Source: an uncultured Acidobacteriaceae bacterium (GTDB lineage Bacteria; Acidobacteriota; Terriglobia; Terriglobales; Acidobacteriaceae). From it: a DNA stretch of 64,000 bases. Shown here in pieces: positions 13,823 to 29,890 of the stretch. Position numbers and translations under genes: made by a program. The stretch's first letter is position 1. Each line of letters opens with the position of its first letter. The notes under the pieces are model-generated. The model did no database searches and was not told the origin of the DNA. It was given only the letters and a program-made list of their open reading frames with translations. The stretch lies in the NCBI GenBank assembly GCA_963765995.1, contig CAVXYT010000023.1:6995-70994 (forward strand), in the 5' to 3' direction.

Positions 13823-16800
13823 ATGAAGCTCACAAATCACAAGTGGTTGCGCGTCAACGGCTGGATTGGACTGTTGTTGATTGAGTTATGCCTGATGTTC
13901 CTGGGGTTAGCAAGCAAGGCCCCGGCGCAGGCGATCAGCACAACGACAGTTCAGGGAACGGTGTATCTGGCGAACGGTCAGCCTGCCACAGGAACACTCG
14001 TGGTGAGCTGGCCATCGTTTACCACGGCGAGCGGTCAGTTGGTGACGGCCGACAGCACGACGGTGACGATTGCGCCGGATGGATTTGTGAGCGTGAATCT
14101 GGCGCCTAATCTGGGGGCGACTCCGGCGGGGTTGTATTACACGGCGGTCTATTACATGAGCGATGGCTCGACTAACACCCAATACTGGGTGGTGCCGACG
14201 GGGACGCAAGCGACGCTGGGGCAGGTGCAGGCGCAGTTGATGCCGGCGACGCGGGCCGTGCAGGCAGTGAGCAAGGCCTATGTGGATCAGGCGATCGCGG
14301 AGCTAACGGGAAGCCTGCTGACGGGATCGGGAGGGACGCTGAGCGGGCCACTTACATTGTGCTGCGATCCGACGCTGCCGTTGCAAGCGGCGGACAAGCA
14401 CTATGTGGACGCAGCATCTGCCTTAGCCGTGCCATTGACAGGCGCGACAATGACCGGGCCGCTGACGAGCGTGAAATTAGGGGCTTTATACCAAGTGGAC
14501 CAGTTTTCCGGATCGGATTTCGGAGCCAAGCTGAGTGCGTGCCTGAGCGGGCTGAGCTCGACGAATGGCGGTACGTGCGATGCGCGCAATTTCACGGGCA
14601 CTCTGTCGATGGGATCGAACCTGACGATTTCGACGGCGAATGCGACGGTTCTGCTGCCTTGCGCGACGATTTCGACTGCCAATCAGTTGATGGTGGCGGC
14701 GGGCACGAGGAATGTGTCGCTGCGCGGGTGCGCATTGCGCGGGGCGAGCACGGCGAGCGGGAGCCAGGGCGGCACGGTGTTTCTGTATTCGGGAACGGGC
14801 GCGATGGTGCAGGTGGGAGACCCGACCTATGCGGCGGACACGATGGGTTTTCATCTGGACAATGTGGTGATTAACACTACGGCTTCGTCCAGCGGAGCGG
14901 CGCAAGGACTGGCGGCCTATCGCACGCAGGAGATGGACCTGGAAAGCTTGTATTTTCTTGGTAACTCGAATCAGACAGGAATGACACTGGACGGGACTGG
15001 GAATTATACCGGGGGAACGTTTCTCGACAACGAATTCAATGGCTACCAGACGGCGGTGAACGCCATCGGGCACCAGATATCGAATCCTGCCACGACAGAT
15101 TGGGTAAATGCGAGCACGTTTGTGCGGTTGCACATCGACTGCCCGACGAGCGGGGGAAGCCCGATCAGCGGGAGTTATGGGATCAACCTGCAACAGGGCG
15201 ATGGAAACACGTTCACGGGCGGAGACGTAGAGGGATGTTCGACGGCATTGCACCTGGGAGCGAACGCGCAAAACAACATGATCGTTGGACTGCGGAACGA
15301 AAACTCGACGAACCAGGTTGTGGCGGATGCGGGCAGTTCGTATAACAACTGGATGACCGGGGGAACGATGTTTACCGGTCAGTTGACCGACAACGGCACG
15401 CGCAACAGCTTCCTTGATGCATTTCACCGGAGTTTCAATGGCCTGAACGGCGATTGGTACGGAAGTCAGAAAGACGCGACGGTCACCAACCACTATCGCC
15501 TGGGGACAGGCGCAGGAAACGAGCGCGGCCTGCTGGACCGCTATCAAAGCGACTACGGCTACCGCTGGACGCTAGGCTTGAGCGACGCGACGGCCGGCGA
15601 GCAGTTTTACCAGATACTGGACGAACTGAACAATGTGTACCGGCTGTCGGTGGGCCAGAATAACAACGGGCAGTCGAGCACGAATAACCAGACGGTGATC
15701 AATGCGGCAGGAACCGGCGCTGTGGTGTTGAACGGATCGAACAACGCGGGGACCGGCGGAGTGGTGATCGGGTCGGGCGGCGCGAGCGAGACGACCGTGG
15801 CGACGATCGGCAACACCGGAAATGCGCAGTTCAACGGGACGCTGCAGGTGGGGGGCGCGTCAACTCTAGCGGGGACCGCAACAGTTAAGAACCAGGCCGA
15901 CGCGGAGATCGATGCGACGCTGTGGGCGGGACTGACGACGAGCCAGAAAGAGTCGTTCATTTACAAGGACTGGAACGGCAACAGCCAGTGGTACATGGTG
16001 AAGGACGGGAGCAATAACTGGGCGCTGAATTCGGCCACAGGCGGATTGGACAGTTTCAAGGCTTACCAGAGCGCCAACAGCGGCGACACGTACATCAACA
16101 CCTCGAACGCTTCCGGGGTCGTGCGCATCAACTACGAGACTGGATCAGGAACTCAGCTAAAAGTATATGGGGGGAACAGCAGCACTCTTTATGCCTCCTT
16201 CACGGGCGCGGCATTGATTCAATTTCCAGGGCTTGCGGCGAGCAGCGGCCACAACTGCCTACAGATCGATAACTCGGGCTATGTCACGAATACGGGGACG
16301 GCCTGCGGCAGCGGAAGCACCAGCGGGACGGTCAACACGGGGACCAGCGGGCAGATTGCCTATTACAGCGGAGCAGGCACAACCCTATCCGGCACAAACA
16401 CGGTTTCCGTAACGGCCGGAGGGACCGGGGCTTCCACGGCTTCAAGCGCGCTGGCGAACCTGGGCGGAGCATCGCTCGCAGGGGCGTCTTTTACGGGACC
16501 GGTGAGTGTTTCGACAACACTGTCTGTAGCAAACAACGCGAGCATCGGGCCGCGGTACGATGTGACGAACTCCGCGTTTGGCGCAGTAGGCAACGGCTCG
16601 ACAGATGACACGGCGGCGATTCAGGCAGCTTTTGACGCTTGTTATCACGGCGGTGTTGCTCCCTACGGCGGCGTGGTTGAGTTTCCCGGTCCTCACAGCT
16701 TTGTGGTCTCCTCCACGATTAACGCGCACGATTCCTGCCAGGTGGAGGGGGTTGTGGGAAGCTCGACCGTGGCCAACGCGCCGGTTCGGGTTCTATGGAA

Positions 16801-19720
16801 GGGCGCGGCAGCGGGAACAGTTTCGACGATTACCGGATACAGCGTAGCAGCGGGCGGCATTGCAACCTTCACAGCCGCAAACAGCCTGACCGCCGGGCAG
16901 TACGTCGATATTGAGGGATTGACTACTACGACAGGCACGACAATGAACCGGCTCATCGCGCCGGTTCTGGCTGCCGGACTATCCACGACGCAGTTTGAAA
17001 TACAGGCGAACGCATCGGCGACGACAACGACATCGGATTCCGGCACTGCAACGACCGTCAACGTGCTTCTTGTCTTTGATTCCAGTGCCAGATACGAACA
17101 GTCCCTCAAGAATATGGAGTTTGCCCTGGCATCCGGCGCGACTACGGGGTCGCTGCAAGTAGACGTGTACTACGGTAGCCGCGTTGATACCGGAACCCAC
17201 GTTGAGAATACCTGGGCGGAGCAAGCCACGATGTATGGTTACTACTTTTCCGGCGGGGGCATCAACGTAGACTTCGACAAAGGCTGGCGGTGCGACTCTG
17301 CCGGGATATCCTGCATCTATTGGCGGCTGTCAGGAGGGGATTCCTTTGGAATAGCCAACGGAACGGCAGACAACAGTCAAGGCGGCACGATGACGCCGAG
17401 CGGCGGCCTGTTAATGGTGGATGGCGCTCCCTGCGTCAACACCTCGTTCCTAAATTTCGAGTCACGGAATGTGCTGTTTGAAGTGAACTCTACGATTACC
17501 TCTGGCCTGGGCATTTTTACGCTGTATGATTGCCCATCAGCCGCACAGAATTTTAACCTGAACCTGGAAAGCACGAGAGAAAGCATAGCTGCGGCATCCA
17601 CCTCCGGTTTCAATTTCCCGGCTATCGTCATGTCTCCGCCGAGTGATTCAAAGCTCACCTTGAACATGGCCGATGGTGGATTCTACAATGGCACCGCGCC
17701 CAACACAACCACAAGGTTTGTTGGGATTCCGGCATTGATGAGAGACGATATAGGAGACGGCCCATTCCTGAGTTATGCTCCTTCGTTCAATAGCCTTGCG
17801 GCTGCTAATAATGCTCCGGAACCGATCTCTCTGATAGGCGATGTTGAGTTCAGCCAACTCTGGCAGCACGGGGTTGAGGCATCGGCATTTCTATTCTCAG
17901 ATACAGCGTACGCCGCGCTTCCCAACGGGACAACGCTGTACTCCGGCCAGGTGCTCGCGCCCCCAGCCTACTGGAACGGGGCCAACGGGAAGCGGTATGC
18001 TCTCGACGTTGTATACCAAACCGGCACGACCGGTTCCCCAAACGCCGGAGCTACCACCTGCACGGATACCGGCTATACAGGAACCATGACCTGCTCCAGC
18101 GCCACGGACTTGTCAGCCGGAAGCGTACTCACGCTAGGGAGCGAAAGCCAAATTACAGTTGCATGGGTGGACAACACGAATCCTTCGGCTGTTATCGTGC
18201 ATAACACAACTTCTTTGCCGCACACAACCAATTCGTCTGCTACTGCGTTGTCCTTCACCGCGCCGGTGCTGGGACCAGAGATTCAAATGCCGACGAAATC
18301 CGCAGCCGCGCCTTCTGCTTTGGCATGGTCGCAGGGAGACTTCGAGCAGAACTCCAGCGCGGTGGCGAATGGTATCTGCGGATGGGTCAATGTGTCAGCC
18401 GGTACGCCGGGAACCTGGACGGCCATTCCGTGCGCCAATAGCAGCGGGCAGATTACAGCGTCTCAGATCGCGCCCGCGTCTCTTCAGGGAACCGATTCAA
18501 AGATTCTTACAGCCGGGACAGTATCGGGCACGGGAGCAGCTCTCTGCACAGACAGCAATGGAGGCGCAACTACTTCCGGCTGCTCCGGGGGCTCCGGGGC
18601 ACCTGCCAATACACCGTCCTGGCTTCAGTATCTTGGCAGCGGAGCGGATGGCTCGTATGAATACAGTTCTACCGGAAGCTGCTCGACGAGTCCGACACAT
18701 TGCGTGACAAGCTGCACTTCGTCAGCGCCGTGTTCGATGGCCGGCGGCGAAATGATCACTACTAATTTTCAAGTGGATTCCGGGGCGTACATCTATGACA
18801 ACATTGCCAGCACGGCAGGGCTAACCATTCATTCACAGGGAGCTTGCAACATCTACGGAACGATTCTGGTCAACGGAGCGAAGAGCACCTGGCCTGCCGG
18901 AAATAAAGGCGTCGGGGGCGGTCCTTCCGGCGGCTCAGGTGGAGGCACCGCGGCGGGTACGGCAGGAACCGCGACTTATCCTACGATTGCCAACACAGGT
19001 TTAGGGAACACATCTGGCGGCACAGCCGGGGCTGCAAGTGGCGGCAACGGTGGAAACGGGACCGCGCCGAGCGCAAATTTTCAAAGATCGGTCACGAACG
19101 CCGGAATTGGCGGAATGGATGGGATGTATCTCACTGGAGCAGCCGGGGTGCAGGGCGGAAGCACTGGCGGCGCGGGCGGTGAAGGTGGTCAAGGACTGGT
19201 TATGATGTGTGCCACGATGAACGGCACAGGCGGCGTCATCGACGCAAGCGGCGCTTATGGGATGCCCCCAGCCGCAAACTCGACTGGGGCAGGAAGCGGC
19301 GGCGGCGGCGGAGTTGTGCTTCTATCCTCGCAAGCTGCTGTTACAAACTGGCCCACAGTTTATGTTGCGGGCGGACCTGGGGGATTGGTCACCGTGCCGG
19401 AAGCCCTGGCAACAGGCGGCGCCTGCACCTCTCAGCCGAAGGCCACTCTCGGCGTTACCAGCGGGGCGTTCAGCGGAACCTGCACGGTGGCGCAAGCGGG
19501 GGCCGGTTGCGGCACGGGCGCAGGCATTACATGGAATATTGCCGGTGGCGGCGGAACGGCGGGAACGGCTGTCATCAACCCAACTTGGAGCAGCGGCACA
19601 CTGGCAAGCTGCACGGTAACGCCGGGTACAAGCACAGGCTATACGGCAGCGACTTACACGACTGCGGGAAAGGGCGGCGACGGCGCGACAGGCTGGTACG
19701 CGGAGTTTGCGGGGTGGTAG
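13823..19720 (+). CDS. Giant tail fibre/tailspike-like protein with two predicted beta-helix regions, Gly-rich C-terminus and N-terminal signal-like peptide
   Basis: About 1965 aa from ATG 13823; fibre-type SKAYVD and AADKHYVD motifs; pectate_lyase_3-type FGAVGNGSTDDTAAIQAAFD; Asn/Gly/Thr-rich repeats; GG-rich tail. Confidence 0.7.
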   Translation: MKLTNHKWLRVNGWIGLLLIELCLMFLGLASKAPAQAISTTTVQGTVYLANGQPATGTLVVSWPSFTTASGQLVTADSTTVTIAPDGFVSVNLAPNLGATPAGLYYTAVYYMSDGSTNTQYWVVPTGTQATLGQVQAQLMPATRAVQAVSKAYVDQAIAELTGSLLTGSGGTLSGPLTLCCDPTLPLQAADKHYVDAASALAVPLTGATMTGPLTSVKLGALYQVDQFSGSDFGAKLSACLSGLSSTNGGTCDARNFTGTLSMGSNLTISTANATVLLPCATISTANQLMVAAGTRNVSLRGCALRGASTASGSQGGTVFLYSGTGAMVQVGDPTYAADTMGFHLDNVVINTTASSSGAAQGLAAYRTQEMDLESLYFLGNSNQTGMTLDGTGNYTGGTFLDNEFNGYQTAVNAIGHQISNPATTDWVNASTFVRLHIDCPTSGGSPISGSYGINLQQGDGNTFTGGDVEGCSTALHLGANAQNNMIVGLRNENSTNQVVADAGSSYNNWMTGGTMFTGQLTDNGTRNSFLDAFHRSFNGLNGDWYGSQKDATVTNHYRLGTGAGNERGLLDRYQSDYGYRWTLGLSDATAGEQFYQILDELNNVYRLSVGQNNNGQSSTNNQTVINAAGTGAVVLNGSNNAGTGGVVIGSGGASETTVATIGNTGNAQFNGTLQVGGASTLAGTATVKNQADAEIDATLWAGLTTSQKESFIYKDWNGNSQWYMVKDGSNNWALNSATGGLDSFKAYQSANSGDTYINTSNASGVVRINYETGSGTQLKVYGGNSSTLYASFTGAALIQFPGLAASSGHNCLQIDNSGYVTNTGTACGSGSTSGTVNTGTSGQIAYYSGAGTTLSGTNTVSVTAGGTGASTASSALANLGGASLAGASFTGPVSVSTTLSVANNASIGPRYDVTNSAFGAVGNGSTDDTAAIQAAFDACYHGGVAPYGGVVEFPGPHSFVVSSTINAHDSCQVEGVVGSSTVANAPVRVLWKGAAAGTVSTITGYSVAAGGIATFTAANSLTAGQYVDIEGLTTTTGTTMNRLIAPVLAAGLSTTQFEIQANASATTTTSDSGTATTVNVLLVFDSSARYEQSLKNMEFALASGATTGSLQVDVYYGSRVDTGTHVENTWAEQATMYGYYFSGGGINVDFDKGWRCDSAGISCIYWRLSGGDSFGIANGTADNSQGGTMTPSGGLLMVDGAPCVNTSFLNFESRNVLFEVNSTITSGLGIFTLYDCPSAAQNFNLNLESTRESIAAASTSGFNFPAIVMSPPSDSKLTLNMADGGFYNGTAPNTTTRFVGIPALMRDDIGDGPFLSYAPSFNSLAAANNAPEPISLIGDVEFSQLWQHGVEASAFLFSDTAYAALPNGTTLYSGQVLAPPAYWNGANGKRYALDVVYQTGTTGSPNAGATTCTDTGYTGTMTCSSATDLSAGSVLTLGSESQITVAWVDNTNPSAVIVHNTTSLPHTTNSSATALSFTAPVLGPEIQMPTKSAAAPSALAWSQGDFEQNSSAVANGICGWVNVSAGTPGTWTAIPCANSSGQITASQIAPASLQGTDSKILTAGTVSGTGAALCTDSNGGATTSGCSGGSGAPANTPSWLQYLGSGADGSYEYSSTGSCSTSPTHCVTSCTSSAPCSMAGGEMITTNFQVDSGAYIYDNIASTAGLTIHSQGACNIYGTILVNGAKSTWPAGNKGVGGGPSGGSGGGTAAGTAGTATYPTIANTGLGNTSGGTAGAASGGNGGNGTAPSANFQRSVTNAGIGGMDGMYLTGAAGVQGGSTGGAGGEGGQGLVMMCATMNGTGGVIDASGAYGMPPAANSTGAGSGGGGGVVLLSSQAAVTNWPTVYVAGGPGGLVTVPEALATGGACTSQPKATLGVTSGAFSGTCTVAQAGAGCGTGAGITWNIAGGGGTAGTAVINPTWSSGTLASCTVTPGTSTGYTAATYTTAGKGGDGATGWYAEFAGW

Positions 19721-19793
19721 GCAGGATCGGCCTGGGTTCCAGTAAATAGGCAAGCCCTTCAGAGAGCCGGAGCACAATGCAAGGAGCACACGG

Positions 19794-21401
19794 ATGGCGG
19801 CACACAGCGCGGGGCTTGTGCGGGAGCGCGTGGACAGGTTTCTCAAACTTGAGAAAGATATGGCGGAGAAAACAGAAGGAAGCACGGCAGTTGCGGGGGA
19901 GCCGCGCTTGTGCCCGGAGAAGCTCAACCGAGAGGAGCTGGAGCGATTTGGGCGGATTCTGGATTCCCGGCCGTCGAGCATGCGGGGGCGGACGGTGGGC
20001 ATGGCGCTGGCCGAGCAGCTTTTGCAGGTAAGGACGCGGGATGGGAGCACGGCGCCGTTGAAGGCGAACGCGGTGCAGCGAGCCTTTGAGCGGCGGCGGG
20101 GCGAGCGGAATATCGTGCTGAAGGCGCGGCAGATGGGGTTGACGACCTGGGCGGCAGCGCGGTTTTTTCTGAAGACGATTACCCGGCCGGGGACACTGAC
20201 GCTGGAGGTTGCGCACACGCAGGAGGCGGCCGAGGAGATCTTCCAGATCGTTCACCGGTTTGTGGACTGGCTACCGGAGGAACTGCGCGAAGGTCCGCTG
20301 CGGACCTCGCGAGCCAATGTGCGGCAGATTGTGTTTCCGGAGATGGATTCGCAGTACAGAGTGGTATCGGCGGGCGAGCGGAACGCGGGGCGGGGATTGA
20401 CGGTGCAGAATCTGCACTGCTCGGAGCAGGCGCGCTGGCCGGGCGATCCGGCGGAGACGCTGGCGGGATTGCGAGCGGCGATGGCGCCGGGAGCGGAGCT
20501 GATTCTGGAGTCGACGCCGGAAGGAGTGGGCGGATGCTTCCACGAGGAGTGGCAGAAGGCCGGCGAGACGGGGATGGTGCGGCACTTCTTTCCCTGGTGG
20601 ATGGAGCAGCGGTACCGGGCCAGGGCGGCGGATAAGGCGAGCCTGACGAACGAAGAGCGGGACCTGATGGCGCACCGCAAACTGGACCTGGAGCAGATTG
20701 GTTATCGACGGCAGATACGGGCGGATTTTCGCGGGCTGGCGCGGCAGGAGTATGCGGAAGATTGCGAAAGCTGCTTTCTGGCCAGCGGGGATTCGGTCTT
20801 TGAGCTGGCGGCGATTGAAGCGCGGCTGGCAACATCGACCGAACCGATTGAACGGCGGCAAAATGGGGAGTTGGAGATTTGGCTGCCGCCGCTCAAGGGC
20901 AAACAGTACCTGGTGGCGGTTGATCCGGCCGGCGGCGGGAGCGAGGGCGACTACTCGGCGGCGCAGGTGCTGGAGCTGGAGACGGGGCTGCAGTGCGCGG
21001 AGTTTGCCGGACACATGGGGGGTCTGGAGCTGGCGCGGCTGGTGACGGCGCTGGCCGATGAGTACAACCAGGCGTGGCTGGTGGTGGAGAGGAATAACCA
21101 CGGGAGCGGCGTTCTGGCGCTGATCGAGACGGCGTGCGGTTACGGGAAGATCTACCGGCAGGGTGGGCAGGCGGGCTGGCTGACGACGTCGGTGAGCCGG
21201 CCGGCGGCGCTGGGGCGGCTGAATGCTGGGCTGGTGGAGGAGCCGGAGCGTTTTCAGAGCCGGAAGTTGCTGGCCGAGTGCCGGAGTTTTGTGCGCCGGC
21301 CGGACGGCGGGAGCGGGGCGCGGCCGGGGACGCATGACGACCGGGTGATGGCGATGGCAATCGGGCTGGGGGCGCGGGCGGAGTTGGTAGGGAAAAGCTA
21401 G
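19794..21401 (+). CDS. Terminase large subunit
   Basis: Walker A IVLKARQMGLTT, Walker B LHCSE, ESTPEG coupling motif, nuclease YLVAVDPAGG..DYSA and HDDRVMA. Confidence 0.92.
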   Translation: MAAHSAGLVRERVDRFLKLEKDMAEKTEGSTAVAGEPRLCPEKLNREELERFGRILDSRPSSMRGRTVGMALAEQLLQVRTRDGSTAPLKANAVQRAFERRRGERNIVLKARQMGLTTWAAARFFLKTITRPGTLTLEVAHTQEAAEEIFQIVHRFVDWLPEELREGPLRTSRANVRQIVFPEMDSQYRVVSAGERNAGRGLTVQNLHCSEQARWPGDPAETLAGLRAAMAPGAELILESTPEGVGGCFHEEWQKAGETGMVRHFFPWWMEQRYRARAADKASLTNEERDLMAHRKLDLEQIGYRRQIRADFRGLARQEYAEDCESCFLASGDSVFELAAIEARLATSTEPIERRQNGELEIWLPPLKGKQYLVAVDPAGGGSEGDYSAAQVLELETGLQCAEFAGHMGGLELARLVTALADEYNQAWLVVERNNHGSGVLALIETACGYGKIYRQGGQAGWLTTSVSRPAALGRLNAGLVEEPERFQSRKLLAECRSFVRRPDGGSGARPGTHDDRVMAMAIGLGARAELVGKS

Positions 21402-21557
21402 TGGTCAGGGATCAGGGGTCAGGGGTCAGGGGTCAGGGGTCAGGGGTCAGATGAATTGTTCGCGCCATTTTCGGGATGTCAAGCATTTCTTCAGAAGATC
21501 AATCTGCTCGCGCCATCGAAGAGAAACTGATCACTGACCACTGTTCACTGTTCACTG
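21401..21557. repeat. Inverted heptamer-repeat arms between terminase and kinase genes
   Basis: GTGGTCA GGGATCA (GGGGTCA)x5 at 21401-21449; TGATCAC TGACCAC TGTTCAC TGTTCAC at 21528-21555. Confidence 0.85.
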
Positions 21558-21571
21558 TCAACGCTTAGAAT
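21544..21571 (+). promoter_or_regulatory. Candidate sigma70 promoter for the kinase/DUF3037 pair
   Basis: TTCACT-N16-TAGAAT, the -35 lying inside the heptamer arm; GGGGGA Shine-Dalgarno before TTG 21607. Confidence 0.45.
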
Positions 21572-21606
21572 TCGATTGTGGCTGTGGACGCGGCGGGGGA
21601 ACGGGC

Positions 21607-22479
21607 TTGGCGGTACTGGCGGTGCAGCATATCCGGCGGATGCGGGGCGGAGCGCAGGGCCAGTTGATGCTGGGCGCGGACGGCCAGGTCTACGTGGTGA
21701 AGTTCCAGAACAACCCGCAGCATATGCGGGTGCTGGCCAACGAGTTTCTGGCCTCACGGCTGGCGGCGGCGGCCGGGCTGGCGGCGCCGGAGACGGAACT
21801 GGTGGAGGTTTCGAGCTGGCTGGTGGAGAATACACCGGAGCTGGAGATCGACCTGGGCAGGAAACGGGTCCGGTGCCAGGCGGGCTTGCAGTTCGGATCA
21901 AGATTTGTGGGCGGCCTGATGCCGGGGCAGGTGGTGGACTACCTGCCCGAGGAGCAGATGACCGAGGTGAGAAACCTGGGCGAGTTTGCCGGCATCCTGG
22001 CGCTGGACAAGTGGACCGGCAATGCGAATGGCAGGCAGGCGGTCTTCGCGCGCAAACAGCGGGAAAGGCGCTACCGGGCGGTTTTTATCGACTACGGGTA
22101 TTGCTTTCACGCCGGGGAATGGAGGTTCGAGGATCTTCCGCTGCGCGGGGTGTATTACCGCAACGATGTCTACCGGGAGATCAGAGGATGGGAATCCTTT
22201 GAGCCCTGGCTGACGCGGCTGGAGACGATGGCGGCGGAGACGGTGTGGGCGGCGGCCAGCGAGGTACCCCCTGAATGGTATGGCGGCGATCTGAGCGAGA
22301 TGGAAGCGCTGGTGGAGAAGCTGCTCCAGCGGCGGAGCCGGATTCGCAAGCTGATTGAAGGATTCGGGAAGTCGGATCGGAAGCCATTTCCGAAATGGGG
22401 CGGGATGGGGAAAGATGTGATGGAAGAGGGTTGGAAAGAGGAACGGTGGGGGACTAACATGACGGGGAGAGTGAATTAG
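21607..22479 (+). CDS. HipA-like (HipA_2-type) Ser/Thr kinase
   Basis: Gly loop MRGGAQ, YVVKF, LANEFLA, FGSRF, catalytic-loop region LDKWTGNANGRQ, DFG-equivalent FIDYGYCF. Confidence 0.85.
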   Translation: MAVLAVQHIRRMRGGAQGQLMLGADGQVYVVKFQNNPQHMRVLANEFLASRLAAAAGLAAPETELVEVSSWLVENTPELEIDLGRKRVRCQAGLQFGSRFVGGLMPGQVVDYLPEEQMTEVRNLGEFAGILALDKWTGNANGRQAVFARKQRERRYRAVFIDYGYCFHAGEWRFEDLPLRGVYYRNDVYREIRGWESFEPWLTRLETMAAETVWAAASEVPPEWYGGDLSEMEALVEKLLQRRSRIRKLIEGFGKSDRKPFPKWGGMGKDVMEEGWKEERWGTNMTGRVN

Positions 22480-22504
22480 AACGAGGCCAGGCGACAGCCA
22501 GATC

Positions 22505-23380
22505 ATGAGTAGCGGAAACGAACGGCGGGCATGCGAGTTTCAACTGCTCCGGTATGTGCCGGATGCGGTGCGGAACGAGTATGTGCATATCGGGGTGATC
22601 CTCCGCGAGCAGGGCGGCGGGCCAACGGAGATCCGGCTTACCCGCGACTGGCGCCGCGTGCGCTGTCTGGATCCGGAGGCCGACACCGCGCTGCTGGAGG
22701 GGATGGAGAGCGAGCTGCGCAGGCGCTTTGAGGCCGAGCCGGATGGGAATCTGATGCGGTTGCTCAGCGAATCGCTCTCGCTGAGCGTGCAGATGACCGA
22801 ACCCAAGGCGTACCTGGCGGAGAGCCTTCCGGCGGGGATGGAAGAGTTGATGCGGCTTTACGTGGAGCCGCCGCCGAGAGAACGAATCCCGCGGCTGAGC
22901 GGCCGGGCGGCGATTCAGGCGAGGATGCGGACAGAGTTTGAACGGGCCGGGGTGTGGGATCTGCTGAGAAAGAAGATTGCGGCTTCGGAGTACACGCGAC
23001 CGGGGGATCCGCTGCGGATTGACGTGGGGTACCGGCCGAATGGGGTGCGCCACCCCGCGGACAAAGACCCGTCCGCGGGGACCCCGTTCATCCGCATGTT
23101 TCACGCGGTGAGCCTGGAGCCGGGCGTGGAGATGGCCAAGGTGCTGGCATTTTCGGCGGCGGGATTGCGGGCCGGCGTGGAGCGCGTGGAGAAGGCCAGC
23201 CTGGAGCTGACCGCGGTGATCGAGCCCGCATTGAAGCTGGGAGCTACCGGCGAGGAGCCGGAGCGGCTGGAGATGTACCGGTTTGGCGTGGAGACGATGG
23301 AAGAAAACCTCATAAGGGTGCTGACGACGTCGGACCTGGGGCGGGTGGCGGAGACGGCGCGGCGGGAGCTGCGGGTGTGA
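22505..23380 (+). CDS. DUF3037 family protein (partner of HipA-like kinase)
   Basis: N-terminal FQLLRYVPDAVRNEYVHIGVIL signature; directly downstream of the kinase. Confidence 0.85.
   Translation: MSSGNERRACEFQLLRYVPDAVRNEYVHIGVILREQGGGPTEIRLTRDWRRVRCLDPEADTALLEGMESELRRRFEAEPDGNLMRLLSESLSLSVQMTEPKAYLAESLPAGMEELMRLYVEPPPRERIPRLSGRAAIQARMRTEFERAGVWDLLRKKIAASEYTRPGDPLRIDVGYRPNGVRHPADKDPSAGTPFIRMFHAVSLEPGVEMAKVLAFSAAGLRAGVERVEKASLELTAVIEPALKLGATGEEPERLEMYRFGVETMEENLIRVLTTSDLGRVAETARRELRV
23051..23085 (+). repeat. 35-bp palindromic repeat family A, inside DUF3037 gene
   Basis: CACCCCGCGGACAAAGACCCGTCCGCGGGGACCCC, translated HPADKDPSAGTP. Confidence 0.88.
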
Positions 23381-23385
23381 GGACA

Positions 23386-23567
23386 GTTGTCAGTGATCAG
23401 TTGTCAGTTCTTTTCGTATAGATTGCAGCTGACGGAAAATTATCAGCACAGGCTTGCAGATAATTATCGGTGTTTGCGGTAGGATCGATTTTGTTGTGAA
23501 GTTCAAGCGGTTGGAAGTCACGGTCTGTCGGCGGGTAGCTGATCACTGACCACTGACAACTGATCAC
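23386..23567. repeat. Inverted heptamer-repeat arms between DUF3037 and portal genes
   Basis: GTTGTCA GTGATCA GTTGTCA at 23386-23406; TGATCAC TGACCAC TGACAAC TGATCAC at 23540-23567. Confidence 0.85.
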
Positions 23568-23579
23568 TGGCGAAGATGA

Positions 23580-23615
23580 GGCATGGCCCTTTCCGGGGCT
23601 GTGCCTTTTTGTTTT
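23580..23615 (+). terminator. Intrinsic terminator immediately upstream of the portal gene
   Basis: Stem GGCATGGCCC / GGGCTGTGCC (10 bp, 2 G-U), 6-nt loop, followed by TTTTTGTTTT. Confidence 0.7.
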
Positions 23616-23635
23616 GGGGCGGCGGGAAAAGGAAG

Positions 23636-24913
23636 GTGCGCGTGAAGGTAGGAGAGCAGTTGCGGGAGATCTGGCGGCAGGCGACCGGAAGTGGCCGCAG
23701 GACGGAGATAGCGGCGGGCGCGGCAGATGCGGAGGCGGAGCGCAGGACGCTGGCGCTGCCTGCGATCCTGAGCCCGGTCCAGTTTCCGGGACAACACTTG
23801 CCCAAGCCGACACCGATGAATCTGCGTAGATTTGCGGAGACCCCGGTTGTCCGGCGAGCGATCAACGTGATCAAGGATCGCATTGCGGCCATGGACTGGC
23901 AGGTGAGGGTGCGGCGCGGCGTGAGGCCGGGAGATTTGGCCTTTGCGGAACGCAAGCTGCGCGCGCTGCGCCGCACGCTGGAAGAGCCGAATGCGACGGA
24001 CAGTTTTCGGACCTTGATTGAACAGGTGATTGAGGACGCGCTTACGGGCGGGTACGGGGCCATCGAGATGGAGCCGACCGGCGACACAGAGCGGCCGGCG
24101 ATGCTGTGGGCGGTGGATGGGGCGTCGATCCGGATCAATCCACGCTGGGACGGACAGCCGGAGACGCCCCGGTATGCGCAGGCGATGCCGGGGCAACTGG
24201 AGTCGAGCGCGATCGAGTTGCGCGACGACCAGCTTATGTATGTGCGCATGAATCCGCGCAGCTTTACGCCCTTCGGGCTGGGACCGCTGGAAGTGGCCTT
24301 CGAGACGGTGAACCAGTTCTTGAGCGCGCACCGATTTGCAGGCAAGCTGGCGGCGAACGCGGTGGCGCAGTATGCGCTGTGGCTGAACGAGGCGACGCCC
24401 GCGCAGCACGACCGGCTGATTCGCTGGTGGCAGGACGAGATCGAGGGAACAGGGCGGGTGCCGTTGATTTCGACCGAGCAGAAGCCGGAGGTACTGCGCT
24501 TTGCCCAGGGGACGGACGCGGATATGCGGCTGGCCTGGCAGGAGTTTCTGATCCGCATGGTGGCTAACTCCTTCGGGCTGCCGCCGCTGATGCTGGGACT
24601 GGAGGCGGATGTCAACCAATCGACCGCGTCGGAGATGACCGATGAGGCCTTCCGCGGGGCGATCTCGCCGTTGGCGATGCTGCTGGCCGGGCACATTACC
24701 CGTGACCTGTTCGGCAAGTGCATTGGCTGGCGGGAGTTTGAGTTTGTCTTCAACGAACTGAACGCGAGGGACGAGGAGACGGAGCTGGCGGTGCAGGTGC
24801 AACTGCTGCAGGCCGGCGTGTTGACGGTGAACGAGGTGCGGGCGATGCGGGGATTGGGACCGCTGGGGCAGGATGGGGCGGCGCAGTTGACGGGCGGAGC
24901 GGAGAGCGCATGA
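23636..24913 (+). CDS. Phage portal protein (HK97-like)
   Basis: VRRAINVIKDRIA, LIEQVIED.LTGGYG.IE, FGLGPLE, FGLPPLMLG, GVLTVNEVRAMRGLGPL; GTG 23636 with GGAAGG upstream (ORF open from 23576). Confidence 0.9.
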   Translation: MRVKVGEQLREIWRQATGSGRRTEIAAGAADAEAERRTLALPAILSPVQFPGQHLPKPTPMNLRRFAETPVVRRAINVIKDRIAAMDWQVRVRRGVRPGDLAFAERKLRALRRTLEEPNATDSFRTLIEQVIEDALTGGYGAIEMEPTGDTERPAMLWAVDGASIRINPRWDGQPETPRYAQAMPGQLESSAIELRDDQLMYVRMNPRSFTPFGLGPLEVAFETVNQFLSAHRFAGKLAANAVAQYALWLNEATPAQHDRLIRWWQDEIEGTGRVPLISTEQKPEVLRFAQGTDADMRLAWQEFLIRMVANSFGLPPLMLGLEADVNQSTASEMTDEAFRGAISPLAMLLAGHITRDLFGKCIGWREFEFVFNELNARDEETELAVQVQLLQAGVLTVNEVRAMRGLGPLGQDGAAQLTGGAESA

Positions 24914-25410
24914 GACTGGAAGCGATGGCGGTAAAGATTCCCCATGTGGACGGGCACCCCAACCGGGTGGCGTTTGAAGGGGTGTTGACGATGGTGAATT
25001 CAGCCAGCGACAAGGCGCCGGCGGGGGCGCGCGGACACCGGGTGATGCTGACCCGCGAGGCGGCGGAGAAGGCGCTGCCTTCGCTGCTGGGCATGGCGGT
25101 GGACTACCGGCCGGGATGGGACGGCCACGACGCGCGGCGCAAGATCGGGTTGCTGACCGAGGCGGATCTGGCGGGCCAGCGACTGGTGGTTCGCGGGTAT
25201 CTCTACGCGCGAGACTTTCCCGAGGTGGCCGAGGCCATACAGGCGCAGACTCCCGAGGCGCTGGGCATGAGTTATGAACTGGCCGACGCGCGGGTGGAAG
25301 ATATGCGGGCCGATGTGTGGAAGCTGACCCGCGTGACCTTTACCGGAGCGGCAATCCTGCTGCGGGACAAGGCGGCTTACCGGGCCACCAGCTTCCGCAT
25401 GGCGAGTTAG
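24910..25410 (+). CDS. Prohead (maturation) protease-like protein
   Basis: GHD and GMSYE motifs matching the His/Ser of HK97/assemblin-type proteases; FTGAAIL; position after portal. Confidence 0.7.
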   Translation: MRLEAMAVKIPHVDGHPNRVAFEGVLTMVNSASDKAPAGARGHRVMLTREAAEKALPSLLGMAVDYRPGWDGHDARRKIGLLTEADLAGQRLVVRGYLYARDFPEVAEAIQAQTPEALGMSYELADARVEDMRADVWKLTRVTFTGAAILLRDKAAYRATSFRMAS

Positions 25411-25425
25411 CAAAAACAGTTCACT

Positions 25426-25570
25426 GTTGTCAGTTGTCAGTTCTCAGTCATTGGTTCACAGCAAGCCATCGATAGAGAGCCGTGGAGAAGTCGCGTCTCG
25501 ATAGCAGCTAACTGTAACTGATCGCTGGAAGCTGACAACTGATCACTGATCACTGAGAACTGACAACTGA
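25426..25570. repeat. Inverted heptamer-repeat arms between protease and scaffold genes
   Basis: GTTGTCA GTTGTCA GTTCTCA at 25426-25446; TGACAAC TGATCAC TGATCAC TGAGAAC TGACAAC at 25533-25567. Confidence 0.85.
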
Positions 25571-25583
25571 AGAAAGGAATGAA

Positions 25584-25982
25584 ATGGAAAACAAAGAGCA
25601 AGAGATTACGGAGCGGCTGGAAGCCGCGACGACCCTGCTGGAGCGGACACTGAGCTGGCTTGAGGAGCGGCAAGGCGTCTTGACCGGCGAAGTGGAGAGG
25701 ATTTCGGCGACCGTCGAGCAGGGCCGGCGGGAGGCGGAACTGGCGGAGAAGCTGGCCGCCGCCGAACGGGAGTTGGCCGAGGTGAAGGCTGGGGCTGCGC
25801 AAAATGTGTTGAACCCGCTGCGCAGGACGTTGCCCTCGACAACCAGCGAGATGCTGGCCAAGCACGGCATCGGCGAGGGCCCGGTGGACGTGCGGACCCT
25901 GGATGCGGCACTGGCCGGGCTGAGCCTGGAACAGCGCATCGCGGTCAAGAGCCAACTACTGCGGGCAGGCGCAATCGCATAA
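25584..25982 (+). CDS. Coiled-coil scaffold-like protein
   Basis: Glu/Ala/Leu/Arg heptad pattern; between protease and capsid genes. Confidence 0.55.
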   Translation: MENKEQEITERLEAATTLLERTLSWLEERQGVLTGEVERISATVEQGRREAELAEKLAAAERELAEVKAGAAQNVLNPLRRTLPSTTSEMLAKHGIGEGPVDVRTLDAALAGLSLEQRIAVKSQLLRAGAIA

Positions 25983-25987
25983 AAGCA

Positions 25988-26008
25988 GTTTTCAGTTGTC
26001 AGTGATCA
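25988..26008. repeat. Heptamer repeat arm before the capsid gene
   Basis: GTTTTCA GTTGTCA GTGATCA. Confidence 0.75.
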
Positions 26009-26045
26009 CTCAAGCAACGGCCCCATGGAGGGGGCGGAGAAGCCT

Positions 26046-27014
26046 ATGAACGCAACCTTTGCAGACATTCACGCGGCAGCAGACTATATCGGGCCGGGCG
26101 CTATCGAAGTTCCGTTGTATCAGACCGAAATTTTCGACATCTGCCGGCGTTCGAGCCCCTTCGGGCAGCGCATCAAGCAGGTTCCGGCGACCGGGCATCC
26201 GTCGCGGTTCTTCGAGGAGACGGCGATTCCGAATCCGGGAACGGCCGGCTTTGTGAATCCGCGCAGCATCGCGCCTACGGTGGTAAGCCCGACGCGCGTG
26301 GAGCGCAGCGTGCCGCTGAAGGCAATCGTTTCGCAGATCAACTACAACCTCTTCGACATCGAGCTGGGCGACCAGCAGAAGCAGTTTGCCTATCTCCAGG
26401 CCAAAGACCTGGTGGATACGGTGAGCGGCGTGATGGTGGCTCATGACGTGGCCTTGTGGAACGGCAACGACACCAGCCTGAGCTCGCCGACGACCACGCA
26501 GTACATGGGCGTGATTCCGCAGATTGTGGCGGGCGGCCTCACGACGACCATCGGCACGACGGCATCAATCGTGGATGGAATCAAGTCGGCTGTGGCGCAG
26601 ATGGTAGCCAATAACGGCTTCCATGTTCGGCCCACGGCGATCTACGCCAACCCCGTGCTGCTGGACCTGATCGACCGGGAGATGAAGACCGAGTTCAACG
26701 TGGTGCTGAATACCGACAACATCACGGGCGGTATTCGGGTGAAGATGCTTTCGACGCAGGCGGGCGATCTGCCGCTGATTCCGGACTGGAGCCTGAGTTA
26801 CACGGGCACGCCGGGCTCGGGCACGGCGGTTTTGCCGGCCTACATCGTGACCGAGGATCTGATCGAGTACCACTGGCTCGGCGATCCGACGCCGCGCATC
26901 TTCCAACTGGGACTGCCGAACTCGCTGACTTACCAGTATGTCGCGGTCAAATTCGGCGCGCCGGTGGTGAAGGGCGCCAACTACGCGCACTACCAGGTTC
27001 TGGTGGACCGGTAG
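26046..27014 (+). CDS. Major capsid protein (HK97 fold, SU10-like)
   Basis: 322 aa, beta-rich; DVALWNG, PTAIYANP, STQAGDLPLIPD; syntenic position portal-protease-scaffold-capsid. Confidence 0.8.
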   Translation: MNATFADIHAAADYIGPGAIEVPLYQTEIFDICRRSSPFGQRIKQVPATGHPSRFFEETAIPNPGTAGFVNPRSIAPTVVSPTRVERSVPLKAIVSQINYNLFDIELGDQQKQFAYLQAKDLVDTVSGVMVAHDVALWNGNDTSLSSPTTTQYMGVIPQIVAGGLTTTIGTTASIVDGIKSAVAQMVANNGFHVRPTAIYANPVLLDLIDREMKTEFNVVLNTDNITGGIRVKMLSTQAGDLPLIPDWSLSYTGTPGSGTAVLPAYIVTEDLIEYHWLGDPTPRIFQLGLPNSLTYQYVAVKFGAPVVKGANYAHYQVLVDR

Positions 27015-27023
27015 ACAACGGCA

Positions 27024-27117
27024 GTGATCAGTGAACAGTGGTCAGTGAACAGTAACAACTGACCGCTGTTCACTGCGTGCCGGAGTTTTGTTCTGATCAC
27101 TGACCACTGACAACTGA
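27024..27117. repeat. Inverted heptamer-repeat arms between capsid and neck genes
   Basis: GTGATCA GTGAACA GTGGTCA GTGAACA at 27024-27051; TGATCAC TGACCAC TGACAAC at 27094-27114. Confidence 0.85.
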
Positions 27118-27129
27118 AGGAAGGATCTT

Positions 27130-27753
27130 ATGGCATATCTGCAGCCAGCGGATTATCAGAATTATGGCTTGCCGGCAGGCACGACGGCGGATTGGATTAC
27201 GGCCGCCACGGCATTGATCAACAGCTACTGCAGGCGGCCAGACCTGAACGTGATCCAGTACATGGAGCGGTTGCGGCTGACCAGCGGATCGCAGACGATG
27301 TTGTTGAGCTATCTTCCATTGGCGCTTCTGGGAACGGCTACAACGCCGATAGTGAGCATCGAGGGCCGTTATGCAAGACCGCGGCGCGGCGAGTTTCCGA
27401 ACCAGCCGCTTCTGGAGATCGCGTTGGCGTTTTCGCTGCCAGGGCAGTGGACGGCGATCGATCCTAACTCCGTAGACTACGACCCCAATACCGGGGAGCT
27501 TACGCTGCCATGGAATGTGCTGGGGCTGCCTTACAACGAGGTGGCGGTGACTTATACGGCGGGGCTGGCGACGATTAGCGACGACGTGAAGACGGCGTGC
27601 GCGCAGATTGTCCGGAATGCGCAGTCCACGCCGGCTCTGAACGCAAGCAAGACCAAGATCGACACGATGCAGATGCAGTATTTCTCGAGTTCGCTGGTGG
27701 ACGAAACAGTGCAGGCCTGGCTGCGTCCCTACGTGGCGAACAGGCTGGGGTGA
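27130..27753 (+). CDS. Head-tail connector (adaptor) protein
   Basis: MAYL...ATALINSYCRR and VAVTYTAG...ISDDVKTACAQIV...L.PY pattern of gp6/gp15-like adaptors. Confidence 0.75.
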   Translation: MAYLQPADYQNYGLPAGTTADWITAATALINSYCRRPDLNVIQYMERLRLTSGSQTMLLSYLPLALLGTATTPIVSIEGRYARPRRGEFPNQPLLEIALAFSLPGQWTAIDPNSVDYDPNTGELTLPWNVLGLPYNEVAVTYTAGLATISDDVKTACAQIVRNAQSTPALNASKTKIDTMQMQYFSSSLVDETVQAWLRPYVANRLG

Positions 27754-27756
27754 AGG

Positions 27757-28191
27757 ATGAGCGATACGGCAGCGCGCAACCCTGTGGGAGCGCCGCGGAT
27801 GCTGGCCGATGCCCTGCTGCGAAGCGTGACAGGAACGACGGCCCTTCTGCGGGTGACGGGCGCAAATACGGATAGCAGTCAGTCCGAGGTGGGGCTGGTG
27901 GCAACGGCTTTTGCCGAAGTGGTGATAAGCCCGGTGGTTATGCGCAAGCTGCGGCCTACCTGGCAGGAGAATGGCGAGTCAAAGTGGGAGCTGCTGGTTT
28001 CGGCGACTGGTGTGGAACAACAGGTGAATGCGCTGGACCTGGCATCGGCCCAGTCTCTGTTTGCGATGACTCTGGCGATTACGGTAGCGGGACAGGATTA
28101 TCTGATTGAGTCGATTGGCGCAAACGAAGCCTTCGGCCAGGTGTATCTCTACCGGTTGCTGTTGCGGGAAGCAAGGCAGCAGGCAGTGTGA
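27757..28191 (+). CDS. Putative head-closure (stopper) protein
   Basis: 144 aa beta-rich ORF ending GQDYLIESIG...YLYRLLL; position after adaptor. Confidence 0.5.
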   Translation: MSDTAARNPVGAPRMLADALLRSVTGTTALLRVTGANTDSSQSEVGLVATAFAEVVISPVVMRKLRPTWQENGESKWELLVSATGVEQQVNALDLASAQSLFAMTLAITVAGQDYLIESIGANEAFGQVYLYRLLLREARQQAV

Positions 28192-28196
28192 GAGCA

Positions 28197-28372
28197 GGGA
28201 TCAGGGGTCAGGGATCAGGGGTCTTGATGCGTGATCAATGGCCAAAACCGTGTTTCCGACCCAATCGCGGCTTTTTGTCAACGAACATTGACCCGGAAAG
28301 GTGAGTGGGAAAGCAAGGGAAGTTGATCAAGGAGAGGTTTTCTGATCCCTGATCCCTGACCCCTGATTCCTG
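28197..28372. repeat. Inverted heptamer-repeat arms before the tail genes
   Basis: GGGATCA GGGGTCA GGGATCA at 28197-28217; TGATCCC TGATCCC TGACCCC TGATTCC at 28343-28370. Confidence 0.85.
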
Positions 28373-28379
28373 TCTTCTT

Positions 28380-28865
28380 ATGCAAAATGCGAAAGATTCG
28401 TTTTATATGGCACTGCGCACGCGGCTGGCGGCGATCAATCCAGAGCGGACGATTCTGCTGCGCGGAGCGGTAAGGCCAGGGATTCTGGCGGAGGAAGCCG
28501 AGGCTCCCTTCAGCCAGCTTCCCAACGATGTGTTTGTTCTGCGCTGGCTGGGCCTGGGCGTCGATTTTGATCTCGGGTCCATGATGGTGGCCGAGCAGTG
28601 CGAGGTGATCTATCAGACCTGCGGAACGCAAAGCTTCAGCGGGTTGGACCGCGGCCGGTCGCTGAGCGAGTTGGACGAGGAACTTGTGGCGATGATGCAG
28701 CCTTTCTACACCGCCAAGCTTAACTTCACGGCAACGCCGCCGGCGGCGATGCTGACGAAGGTGTTCTGGGATGAGCCGGAGTTTGCGCCGATCGTGGTCC
28801 AACGGGACCAGCTGAGCCGTTCCGCAAAAGTGATGGTTTACAGCTACCAGGAGCAGGGGGAGTAA
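28380..28865 (+). CDS. Putative tail terminator/completion protein
   Basis: 161 aa, N-terminal helix SFYMALRTRLAA then alpha/beta pattern; position between neck and tube genes. Confidence 0.45.
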   Translation: MQNAKDSFYMALRTRLAAINPERTILLRGAVRPGILAEEAEAPFSQLPNDVFVLRWLGLGVDFDLGSMMVAEQCEVIYQTCGTQSFSGLDRGRSLSELDEELVAMMQPFYTAKLNFTATPPAAMLTKVFWDEPEFAPIVVQRDQLSRSAKVMVYSYQEQGE

Positions 28866-29840
28866 ATGGCGACGACTTGGTTTTCGGCTCCCGCACCGGT
28901 GGCGCGGCGGGTTCGAGGGTATTTTGCGCCGGTGAACCGGACGGTGCAGACGCCAGTGCTCTTCGACCCGGCGGAGCAGGGCAGTTTCAGCCTGAGCGCT
29001 CCGCCGGCTCCATGGATCAGCCTGGGTTGGATTCAACAGTTCACACGCAAGCAGGGAAGCAAGACCGCCGCTGTGTTGACGGGCATTCCCGCTGGAACGC
29101 TGGAGCAGGTGCGCGAGACGCTTGAGGCGCAGGTGAGCTTTGAATTTCTGAGCTGGACCAAACTGACCATGGCTCTGGCGACGGGCTCGCAACACATGAA
29201 CCTGCTGGCTCCCGCAAGCGGAGCGACTCTGGCGGCGGATGGAGCAACGGCTGCCGCGGCAGTTACGGTGCTGAGCGGATCGACGGCTACATCCATCGTG
29301 CTGGCCTCGGCCGATGCGGCTACTTTTTCTGCTGGTTCGATCATTGCGCTGGACGCGGATTACACGGGGCAGACCGGATATGTGGGCGCGCCTGTATCTG
29401 GAGCGTATGTGCGCACTGCATTAACGGATGTAAATTACATCCGGCGCGTGACCTTTAACGTCGCATTGGTGTCTGCGGTGACTTCCACCGGCTTAACACT
29501 TGCCGAGCCGTTACCGGGCGGAGCTCCTGCGGCCGGTTCCAGGTTGCAGGCAGTCACAGGATTTGTGGATCGCGAGGGCGGCTGTTTCTATCAAGAGTGG
29601 TCGGCGCTGTTTGTGATGGAGGGCAGCCAGGGGGAACGGATCTTCTTCCACTATCCACGGCTGCAGACCATGGCCAGCGCACAAGAAACCGCATTGCCGT
29701 TGGACGGCAAGCAGAAGGCCGGGCTGGCGCGGGTGTTGCTCAAAGGCCAGTTTCTGGCGCTGCCCGTGACCGATCCTCTGGATGGGGAGCGAGTGGTCTG
29801 TTACCGGAGTTTCCTGCCCGCGGCACACGCTCTGGTGTAG
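28866..29840 (+). CDS. Putative tail tube protein with inserted domain
   Basis: Beta-rich N- and C-terminal parts (WISLGWIQQF, QVSFEFL, RIFFHYPRL) around an Ala/Thr/Ser-rich insert; synteny. Confidence 0.5.
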   Translation: MATTWFSAPAPVARRVRGYFAPVNRTVQTPVLFDPAEQGSFSLSAPPAPWISLGWIQQFTRKQGSKTAAVLTGIPAGTLEQVRETLEAQVSFEFLSWTKLTMALATGSQHMNLLAPASGATLAADGATAAAAVTVLSGSTATSIVLASADAATFSAGSIIALDADYTGQTGYVGAPVSGAYVRTALTDVNYIRRVTFNVALVSAVTSTGLTLAEPLPGGAPAAGSRLQAVTGFVDREGGCFYQEWSALFVMEGSQGERIFFHYPRLQTMASAQETALPLDGKQKAGLARVLLKGQFLALPVTDPLDGERVVCYRSFLPAAHALV

Positions 29841-29890
29841 GCGAGTCGGCAAGTCAGCACAACAGCAAGTCAGCAGGGCAGAGAGTCACG

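Follow-up and report, generated by a model that had tools for sequence, protein, structure and literature searches.

A gene pair encoding a HipA-like Ser/Thr kinase and a DUF3037-domain protein belongs, as an ancestral and fixed component, to a phage-derived gene cluster that is vertically inherited in Terriglobales Acidobacteria. The pair was studied in a stretch of 64,000 nucleotides from an uncultured Acidobacteriaceae bacterium (assembly GCA_963765995.1, contig CAVXYT010000023.1, positions 6,995 to 70,994 of the forward strand), hereafter called the window, from whose first letter all coordinates are counted. Here, the kinase gene (21607–22479, + strand, 290 amino acids (aa), TTG start) is followed by the DUF3037 gene (22505–23380, + strand, 291 aa, ATG start), and both lie within a head and packaging gene cluster of ~19 kb (13655–32466, + strand). 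An earlier note, made from the letters of this DNA, had described a co-oriented two-gene module that splits terL and portal, and the gene positions bear this out: the large terminase gene terL (19794–21401, + strand; phrog_2 at E 4.5e-23, Terminase_6C) is the upstream neighbour and the portal gene (23636–24913, + strand; PF04860 at E 1e-52) the downstream one. As to function, we assign a probability of roughly one half to a reading in which the two genes form a divergent member of the class of HipA-like kinase/DUF3037 modules and act as an autonomously expressed anti-phage guard resembling HipAD.

The pair is an old and fixed part of the cluster

A scan of one genome per species yielded at least 564 relatives of the portal protein, the best 80 of which (80–98% portal identity) were analysed; 79 of these loci had a flank that could be used for counting arrangements. 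The order terL, kinase, DUF3037, portal was present in 49 of the 79 loci, while 11 showed kinase, DUF3037 and portal with neither terL nor the giant gene that opens the window's cluster within 10 kb. Nine loci had a flank too short for terL and contained the pair or the DUF3037 gene, and the remaining ten carried neither the pair nor terL directly upstream of portal. Overall, the pair abuts portal in 69 of the 79 species loci. Host genes lie upstream in the 11 loci without terL (e.g. acetate kinase and a permease in L059) as well as in the ten loci without an adjacent pair (e.g. thymidylate kinase and recJ in L050); one of the latter, L049, has the pair ~6 kb further upstream. Searches anchored on the kinase or on the DUF3037 protein recovered the complete order terL, kinase, DUF3037, portal in 17 of 17 IMG/VR loci and in two metagenome contexts. 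Among the deepest relatives, portal is as low as 52% identical, terL 49% and DUF3037 32–43%, while the kinase stays at 58–66%.

Pairwise distances among 56 loci revealed that both genes diverge together with portal (r 0.93 for the kinase and 0.97 for DUF3037, compared to 0.89 for the capsid gene). The pair also shares the codon style of the cluster, as stated in the earlier note: relative synonymous codon usage correlates with that of terL, portal and the downstream gene g166 at r 0.96, versus 0.57 with host genes, and the preference for G-ending codons is the same (G3-C3 skew of about +0.4 as compared to -0.2 to -0.65 in most host genes). According to the earlier note, presence of the pair in this strain only would point to a recent insertion and refute its reading. 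Instead, the pair occurs in 69 of the 79 species and in all deeper relatives fetched, and this distribution, the co-divergence with portal (r 0.93–0.97) and the codon style led us to reject a recent insertion.

Selection and location agree with vertical inheritance. The ratio of nonsynonymous to synonymous substitution rates (dN/dS) amounts to 0.12 for the kinase and 0.11 for DUF3037 and ranges from 0.07 to 0.14 over all 11 tested cluster genes (terL to g324) at a dS of ~1. In at least 31 other species loci, the cluster is followed by the convergently oriented bipA gene (88–99% identity), which places it at a fixed chromosomal site, and the asparaginase gene was found upstream in the few loci whose flank was long enough. 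The cluster therefore looks like a vertically inherited, domesticated phage derivative rather than an active prophage.

Where clusters are rearranged, the pair stays in one piece. In L091 and L098 (both IMG/VR), the block from g166 to g324 has moved upstream of the giant gene and terL, kinase, DUF3037 and portal remain together. In several split lineages (L050, L055, L059, L062 and others), the portal locus lacks terL and the giant gene, in some cases also the pair; host genes replace the missing part and the remaining cluster genes are intact. Breakpoints occur on both sides of the pair but never inside, which speaks for a unit of its own, and they coincide with repeat-rich spacers.

Sequence features of the kinase and its partner

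Both family assignments of the earlier note hold, each Pfam score lying above its curated cut-off. The kinase matches HipA_2 (PF20613) with 43.9 bits (cut-off 27) over residues 9–141, and nearly all of the 120 listed kinase relatives carry the same domain. The domain that defines classical HipA proteins, HipA_C (PF07804), reached only 27.1 bits in the kinase, under its cut-off of 30.5, and no match to the HipA N-terminal domain was obtained in the 290-aa sequence. The start at 21607 is confirmed by the N-terminus MAVLAVQH, which the kinase orthologues have in common; of 62 loci, 53 use TTG and nine GTG as start codon. Relatives that are 56–65% identical to the window protein have the motifs RGGAQG, VVKF, LDKWTxNxxGRQ and FIDxGYCF in invariant form. 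Residues G14, G15, K32, D134, N139 and D162 are invariant in 42 sequences of this identity range and likewise in a six-sequence alignment with five full-length members. By analogy with HipA, these residues would form the glycine-rich loop (G14, G15), the ATP-binding Lys, the Asp and Asn of the catalytic loop and the Mg-binding Asp, respectively. The family is large, comprising 2835 representative clusters at E ≤1e-3 and 544 at E ≤1e-30. The AlphaFold2 model of the kinase is mediocre (predicted local distance difference test (pLDDT) 66) with a poor catalytic core. When it was used in a Foldseek search, atypical kinases were matched at E values from 3e-4 to 1e-2, that is Fam20C (3e-4), CtkA (5e-4) and HipA (3tpv, 3dnt; ~1e-2), at TM-scores of 0.33–0.44 only; PI4KIIalpha was also among the matches.

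The partner matches DUF3037 (PF11236) with 66.3 bits (cut-off 22.6) over residues 12–120 and continues with an unannotated alpha/beta C-terminal domain (residues ~130–291), in line with the two domains of its AlphaFold2 model (pLDDT 82). A PDB structure search with this model returned no significant neighbour, the best being Can2 at E 0.14; several nuclease-fold proteins scored weakly in this search, and a nuclease fold is not claimed. The partner also has matches to two uncharacterised viral proteins at E ~1e-7. No DUF1829 domain was detected in 43 partner relatives, even at E ≤1, and an exact-sequence look-up found no record of the window's DUF3037 protein. It is presumed to be an antidote or regulator of the kinase.

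Considered as a pair, the two proteins match both PADLOC models of the candidate defence system PDC-M66 in the correct order, with PDC-M66A at 8e-10 and PDC-M66B at 2.6e-6 and partial coverage in each case. PDC-M66A is matched by 42 of 42 kinase relatives and PDC-M66B by 28 of 43 partner relatives. Matches of the two proteins to uncharacterised phage families (phrog_3162 and phrog_5137) were also obtained. A tblastn search of both proteins against 50,697 phage records returned no match, i.e. no known phage relative, and profile searches of PDB sequences gave nothing meaningful for either. The two genes are 25 nt apart in the window, whereas in L001 the distance is 3 nt. No HipB-type helix-turn-helix antitoxin gene lies upstream of the kinase gene, a position that is taken by terL and a repeat spacer.

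The pair has its own conserved, predicted transcription signals

The earlier note had proposed that the pair can form a separate transcription unit. This view is upheld by a conserved -10-like box and a covarying terminator, although the individual elements had to be corrected. Of the proposed promoter TTCACT-N16-TAGAAT (21544–21571), it is the second half that stands: TAGAAT (21566–21571, + strand, within GCTTAGAATTCGAT) has an exact copy no more than 70 nt from the kinase start in 55 of the 79 orthologous loci, usually 38–42 nt upstream, and one with a single deviating base in ten more, at a background of 0.003 per interval searched. The box is also kept where terL is absent and host genes lie upstream (L059, L062, L068). 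The first half had to be given up as a specific -35 element, since TTCACT belongs to an array of CTGAYCA-type heptamers (21526–21558, + strand) whose unit sequence varies among species, and the hexamer is not conserved. This array has an inverted partner array of (GGTCAGG)n at 21403–21450, and the entire 205-nt spacer between terL and the kinase gene is built of repeats; its folding was no better than that of shuffled sequence (z -0.2).

The terminator claimed for the 3' end of the pair likewise exists, albeit further downstream. The hairpin that directly follows the DUF3037 stop codon (23382–23405) consists of repeat sequence and was rejected, as its -6.2 kcal/mol (z ~0) is no better than the value for shuffled sequence. 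A strong intrinsic terminator is located at 23578–23617 (+ strand), ~200 nt past the stop codon and directly before the ribosome-binding site of portal. It reads GAGGCATGGCCC-TTTC-CGGGGCTGTGCCTT followed by TTTGTTTTGG, that is a GC-rich stem of 13 pairs (-20 kcal/mol) and a T-run, with AAGGAAGGTGCGCGTGA conserved immediately 3' of it. At least 61 of 100 loci contain this terminator, with folding energies of -14 to -30 kcal/mol, and many others have variant stems. An alignment of 18 versions yielded a consensus stem of 11 pairs, three of which are kept through changes on both sides. The signals would thus allow promoter activity and termination of the pair, both being inferred from sequence. 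The likely true start of portal is the GTG at 23636 or 23642, after the conserved AAGGAAGG; a longer portal reading frame (23576–24913) overlaps the terminator, and gene callers gave 402, 422 or 442 aa in L001–L004.

Between the DUF3037 stop codon and the terminator, the spacer contains a cassette (23384–23569) in which inverted heptamer arrays (23384–23409 and 23539–23569) surround a promoter-like element, TTGCAGATAATT (23454–23465) followed by TAGGAT (23481–23486). The two arrays could form a 22-bp stem, and a folding energy of -77.6 kcal/mol (z -5.2) was calculated for the spacer as a whole. In most orthologous loci, this region contains the motif TTTGCAGATAATT-N-TTTGCGGTAGGAT-cgaTTTTGTTG, and the element can also be written as TTTGCAGATAATT...TTTGCGGTAGGAT...TTTTGTTG in most of them. 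L001 and some of the metatranscriptome contigs lack this cassette, which has ~130 nt between its arrays. A role of the TTGCAGATAATT-type motif as a promoter specific to the cluster was rejected, as motifs of the form TTGCrGATAATT-spacer-hexamer also precede trpC; it is probably the ordinary promoter style of the organism. The succession of a promoter-like element, a short leader and a strong terminator just before portal suggests that expression of the head genes needs regulated read-through, i.e. antitermination, a layout that would recall the control of the late genes of phage lambda. Metatranscriptome contigs from peat, permafrost and soil that derive from related strains match the kinase, DUF3037, portal and g166 at 85–99%, and some of them span the junction of kinase and DUF3037, which records presence in RNA libraries and not transcript ends.

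Nearly all spacers of the cluster contain tandem arrays of a 7-nt unit (CTGAYCA, CTGACCC, CTGACAA) that are arranged in inverted pairs, with further copies at 25426–25448/25518–25570, 25993–26009, 27022–27057/27059–27117 and 28195–28220/28342–28372, as well as outside of the cluster at 34377–34407 and 44174–44198. There are 50 heptamer matches where six are expected, and nine of 11 arrays fall inside the 19 kb. Arrays in orthologous clusters are made of other units (AGCTnnn, GGGAATA) and keep the 7-nt period and the inverted layout. Possible roles include RNA processing, DNA structure or a deletion-prone cassette.

An anti-phage guard as the preferred reading

Pairs of this composition are known from defence systems. 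A strong association links DUF3037 genes to HipA-like kinases, and PADLOC lists the pair as PDC-M66 (PMC12548924). In the operon of Retron-Sda1, deletion of the HipA kinase gene abolishes defence and deletion of the DUF3037 gene is toxic, while the retron parts are dispensable (PMC12548924). DS-6, a validated system in which a HipA-like kinase is paired with a DUF3037+DUF1829 protein and which was found independently and renamed HipAD by its authors, loses defence when the kinase is catalytically mutated, and a toxin-antitoxin mechanism of abortive infection was proposed; DS-6B is predicted to bind DNA (PMC13092281). According to the citation in the latter paper, HipAD was also reported in a study of prophage defence systems of E. 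coli (Brenes & Laub 2025). Judged by these validated relatives, the kinase of the window would be a growth-arresting toxin that the DUF3037 protein keeps inactive. Upon a phage-derived cue, the kinase would be freed and may then phosphorylate an essential host factor, thereby aborting the infection. The arrangement of promoter and terminator suggests that the pair would be expressed alone in ordinary, non-producing cells, where it may guard the host together with the resident cluster instead of serving as a late morphogenesis gene. The weak TTG start of the kinase gene as compared to the ATG of its partner would fit an excess of the antidote.

The guard role was one of several suggestions of the earlier note. 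What speaks for it are the validated HipA-like/DUF3037 relatives (PMC13092281, PMC12548924), a promoter that looks constitutive and a terminator that insulates the pair from portal, features that would fit a guard. Several observations weigh against the guard reading. In its stability, the pair equals the genes for capsid and portal, whereas defence cassettes normally turn over quickly, and this stability would fit a role inside a particle programme equally well. At depth, the kinase is even more conserved than terL or portal (58–66% versus 49–57%). The PADLOC and Pfam matches are restricted to the N-terminal halves of both proteins, the kinase model has low confidence in its catalytic core, and the partner is devoid of the DUF1829 domain of DS-6B. 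Distant HipA_2 kinases adjoin glycosyltransferases (PMC8008677; L107), and not all members of the family need therefore be toxins. Finally, promoter activity and termination rest on conservation and not on transcript ends.

Its stability would also be explained if the pair were an integral control element of the cluster, in which the kinase, once freed from DUF3037, would arrest growth or commit the cell to particle production, the latter being a further suggestion of the earlier note, possibly by way of read-through of the conserved terminator before portal; the two genes would then be core genes and not defence cargo. We consider this unlikely. In its favour, synteny is kept at depth, where the kinase is better conserved than terL and portal. 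Divergence of the pair runs parallel to that of the structural genes, whose codon style it uses, and it stays with portal where terL and the giant gene are elsewhere. A promoter-like element that is followed by a strong terminator before portal would need regulated read-through, and DNA binding is predicted for DS-6B (PMC13092281). Conversely, the constitutive-looking promoter belongs to the pair itself, the terminator separates it from portal, and ten species keep an intact head-gene block without an adjacent pair; particle production by the cluster is itself putative. In addition, we know of no precedent for a HipA-like kinase that regulates a gene transfer agent or a tailocin. More doubtful still is the more far-reaching proposal that the pair serves as control switch in a domesticated phage-particle system which is order-wide in Terriglobales and had not been described before, and in which a defence-type pair was co-opted as a commitment device. 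In such a system, the DUF3037 protein would hold the kinase, and perhaps the promoter-terminator cassette before portal, in check, and release of the kinase would arrest the cell and open expression of the head genes.

The position of the pair between packaging and portal genes could likewise point to a morphogenetic or modifying enzyme, that is a kinase acting on a virion or packaging protein (portal, terminase or scaffold) or on a sugar or lipid of the envelope, with DUF3037 as cofactor or specificity subunit and neither protein being toxic. In 'Gratiaviridae', a kinase lies between portal and capsid genes beside a glycosyltransferase (PMC8008677), a Peribacillus plasmid has a kinase in an operon with a GT4 glycosyltransferase, and the best fold matches of the mediocre model include Fam20C and the lipid kinase PI4KIIalpha. 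However, the partner here is DUF3037 and not a glycosyltransferase, removal of DUF3037 was toxic in the one tested case (PMC12548924), and simple late co-expression is hard to reconcile with a terminator that separates the pair from portal. Altogether, an enzymatic role of this kind appears improbable. We rate lowest the possibility, also raised in the earlier note, that the pair is an addiction module which protects the cluster from deletion by post-segregational killing. Toxin-antitoxin pairs stabilise some chromosomal islands, and the architecture resembles that of a toxin and its antidote, with the weak TTG on the kinase gene and the ATG on its partner suggesting antidote excess. Yet a cluster that resides at a fixed site beside bipA and is under purifying selection needs no addiction. 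Moreover, head genes persist without an adjacent pair in ten of the 79 species and the pair persists without terL in 11. Selfish modules are usually patchy and horizontally transferred, whereas this pair co-diverges with its neighbours. The stable chromosomal site and the ten species that keep their head genes without an adjacent pair leave the addiction role weak. The guard reading thus remains the one we prefer.

Composition of the cluster and its surroundings

The host is Terracidiphilus-like, its closest relatives being Terracidiphilus and other metagenome-assembled genomes of Acidobacteriaceae. In the window, the cluster begins with a gene for a 2021-aa protein, which is followed by terL, kinase, DUF3037, portal, g166, g132, g329, g207, g144, g161, g324 and the genes for a ~787-aa protein and a 74-aa coiled-coil/membrane protein. 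The g329 product is likely the capsid protein, and g207 is assigned to head-tail adaptors (phrog_442). The cluster is flanked by the asparaginase gene (11747–12808, - strand) and bipA (32504–34318, - strand), beyond which lie a gene of the uracil-DNA glycosylase family and recA. No integrase, repressor, replication or lysogeny genes were found in the cluster, and no small terminase gene was recognised anywhere in it. Structural and packaging genes at a fixed site and under purifying selection make the cluster gene-transfer-agent-like by context, a resemblance that is drawn from its genes. No published description of the cluster as such was found in the literature. A 620-aa open reading frame at 32696–34558 (+ strand) was rejected as a cluster gene, being an artefact antisense to the real gene, bipA/typA on the minus strand.

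For the 2021-aa open reading frame (13655–19720), which immediately precedes terL, Pfam, PHROGs and NCBIfam gave no match. Its counterparts in other loci measure 1900–2646 aa, and some deeper relatives have an 805–811-aa protein immediately upstream of terL, either replacing the giant reading frame or besides it. At the other end, the 74-aa protein (32245–32466) of the last cluster gene is coiled-coil in its N-terminal part and hydrophobic at the C-terminus, is found in 63 loci at 78–96% identity and is a candidate for a holin-like or membrane-anchored component. The G3-C3 skew of the cluster genes (19794–29840) ranges from +0.3 to +0.5, with a lower value of +0.11 for the capsid gene g329, while the host genes used for comparison (11747–12808, 36220–37296 and 38730–41351) mostly prefer C-ending codons (-0.2 to -0.65). 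The G-ending bias recurs in most orthologous clusters although inheritance appears vertical, and selection or a transcription-linked mutation bias may keep it in place. Elsewhere in the window, a reading frame for a PIN-domain (VapC-like) protein (37763–38200) lies between recA and uvrD and may encode the toxin of another toxin-antitoxin pair. A tandem repeat at 53102–53207, with a period of 24 or 48 nt, ~4.4 copies and 85–96% identity, is contained within a reading frame at 53033–53692.

Comparison with known systems

HipA-like/DUF3037 pairs have only recently been shown to act against phages. Maintenance of such a pair between terL and portal over dozens to hundreds of acidobacterial species is an unusual stability for a defence module. 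Two questions can be addressed in this natural setting, namely whether a phage morphogenesis protein acts as the trigger, and whether kinase modules of the defence type can become built-in parts of domesticated phage machinery. The cluster is abundant in Acidobacteria of peat and soil and appears in their metatranscriptomes. Its regulation is distinctive, combining a conserved promoter-like box, a leader terminator before portal, arrays of inverted heptamers and a codon style of its own.

The closest likeness is to DS-6/HipAD of E. coli and to PDC-M66, which share the adjacent, co-oriented order of a HipA-like kinase gene and a DUF3037 gene as well as conserved residues of the catalytic type. 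The matches are distant, however, and cover only the N-terminal halves of both window proteins, and the partner has an unannotated C-terminal domain where DS-6B has DUF1829. Moreover, the pair of the window is not located in a variable hotspot but fixed between terL and portal across many species. The pair of Retron-Sda1 comprises the same two domain families and is a stand-alone defence; there, it replaced the retron effector in Bacteroidota and Pseudomonadota, whereas the window pair, in an acidobacterial host, comes without reverse transcriptase or non-coding RNA and stands among phage structural genes.

'Gratiaviridae', gut phages of Bacteroidetes, carry a HipA-family kinase gene in their morphogenesis module, between portal and capsid genes and beside a glycosyltransferase gene, and immunity against other phages was proposed as its role (PMC8008677). 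Embedding among morphogenesis genes is what they have in common with the window; their kinase is accompanied by an AAA ATPase and a glycosyltransferase in free phages, in contrast to DUF3037 in a domesticated chromosomal cluster. A further kinase of the HipA family, at 24% identity a distant one, is encoded on a plasmid of Peribacillus sp. (L107; NZ_CP133765.1, 52488–54379), where its gene overlaps that of a family-4 glycosyltransferase (GT4) by 4 nt, near genes for rhamnose biosynthesis. This layout echoes that of 'Gratiaviridae', and part of the HipA_2 family may thus act on envelope synthesis and not as toxins.

Classical hipBA of E. coli involves the same kinase superfamily and a toxin that is restrained by a co-transcribed protein. 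The window pair differs in that it has no HipB-type antitoxin, and the order is reversed with the kinase coming first, which in addition is short and lacks the HipA N-terminal domain. With the morons of HK97/lambda-type phages, the pair shares an own promoter and terminator and a position between genes that are usually adjacent. Unlike morons, it is not variable among related elements, is not compositionally foreign and is as old as the cluster. Taken together, the type of module is already known, and its deep, fixed integration in a probably undescribed phage-derived cluster of Terriglobales is the new part.

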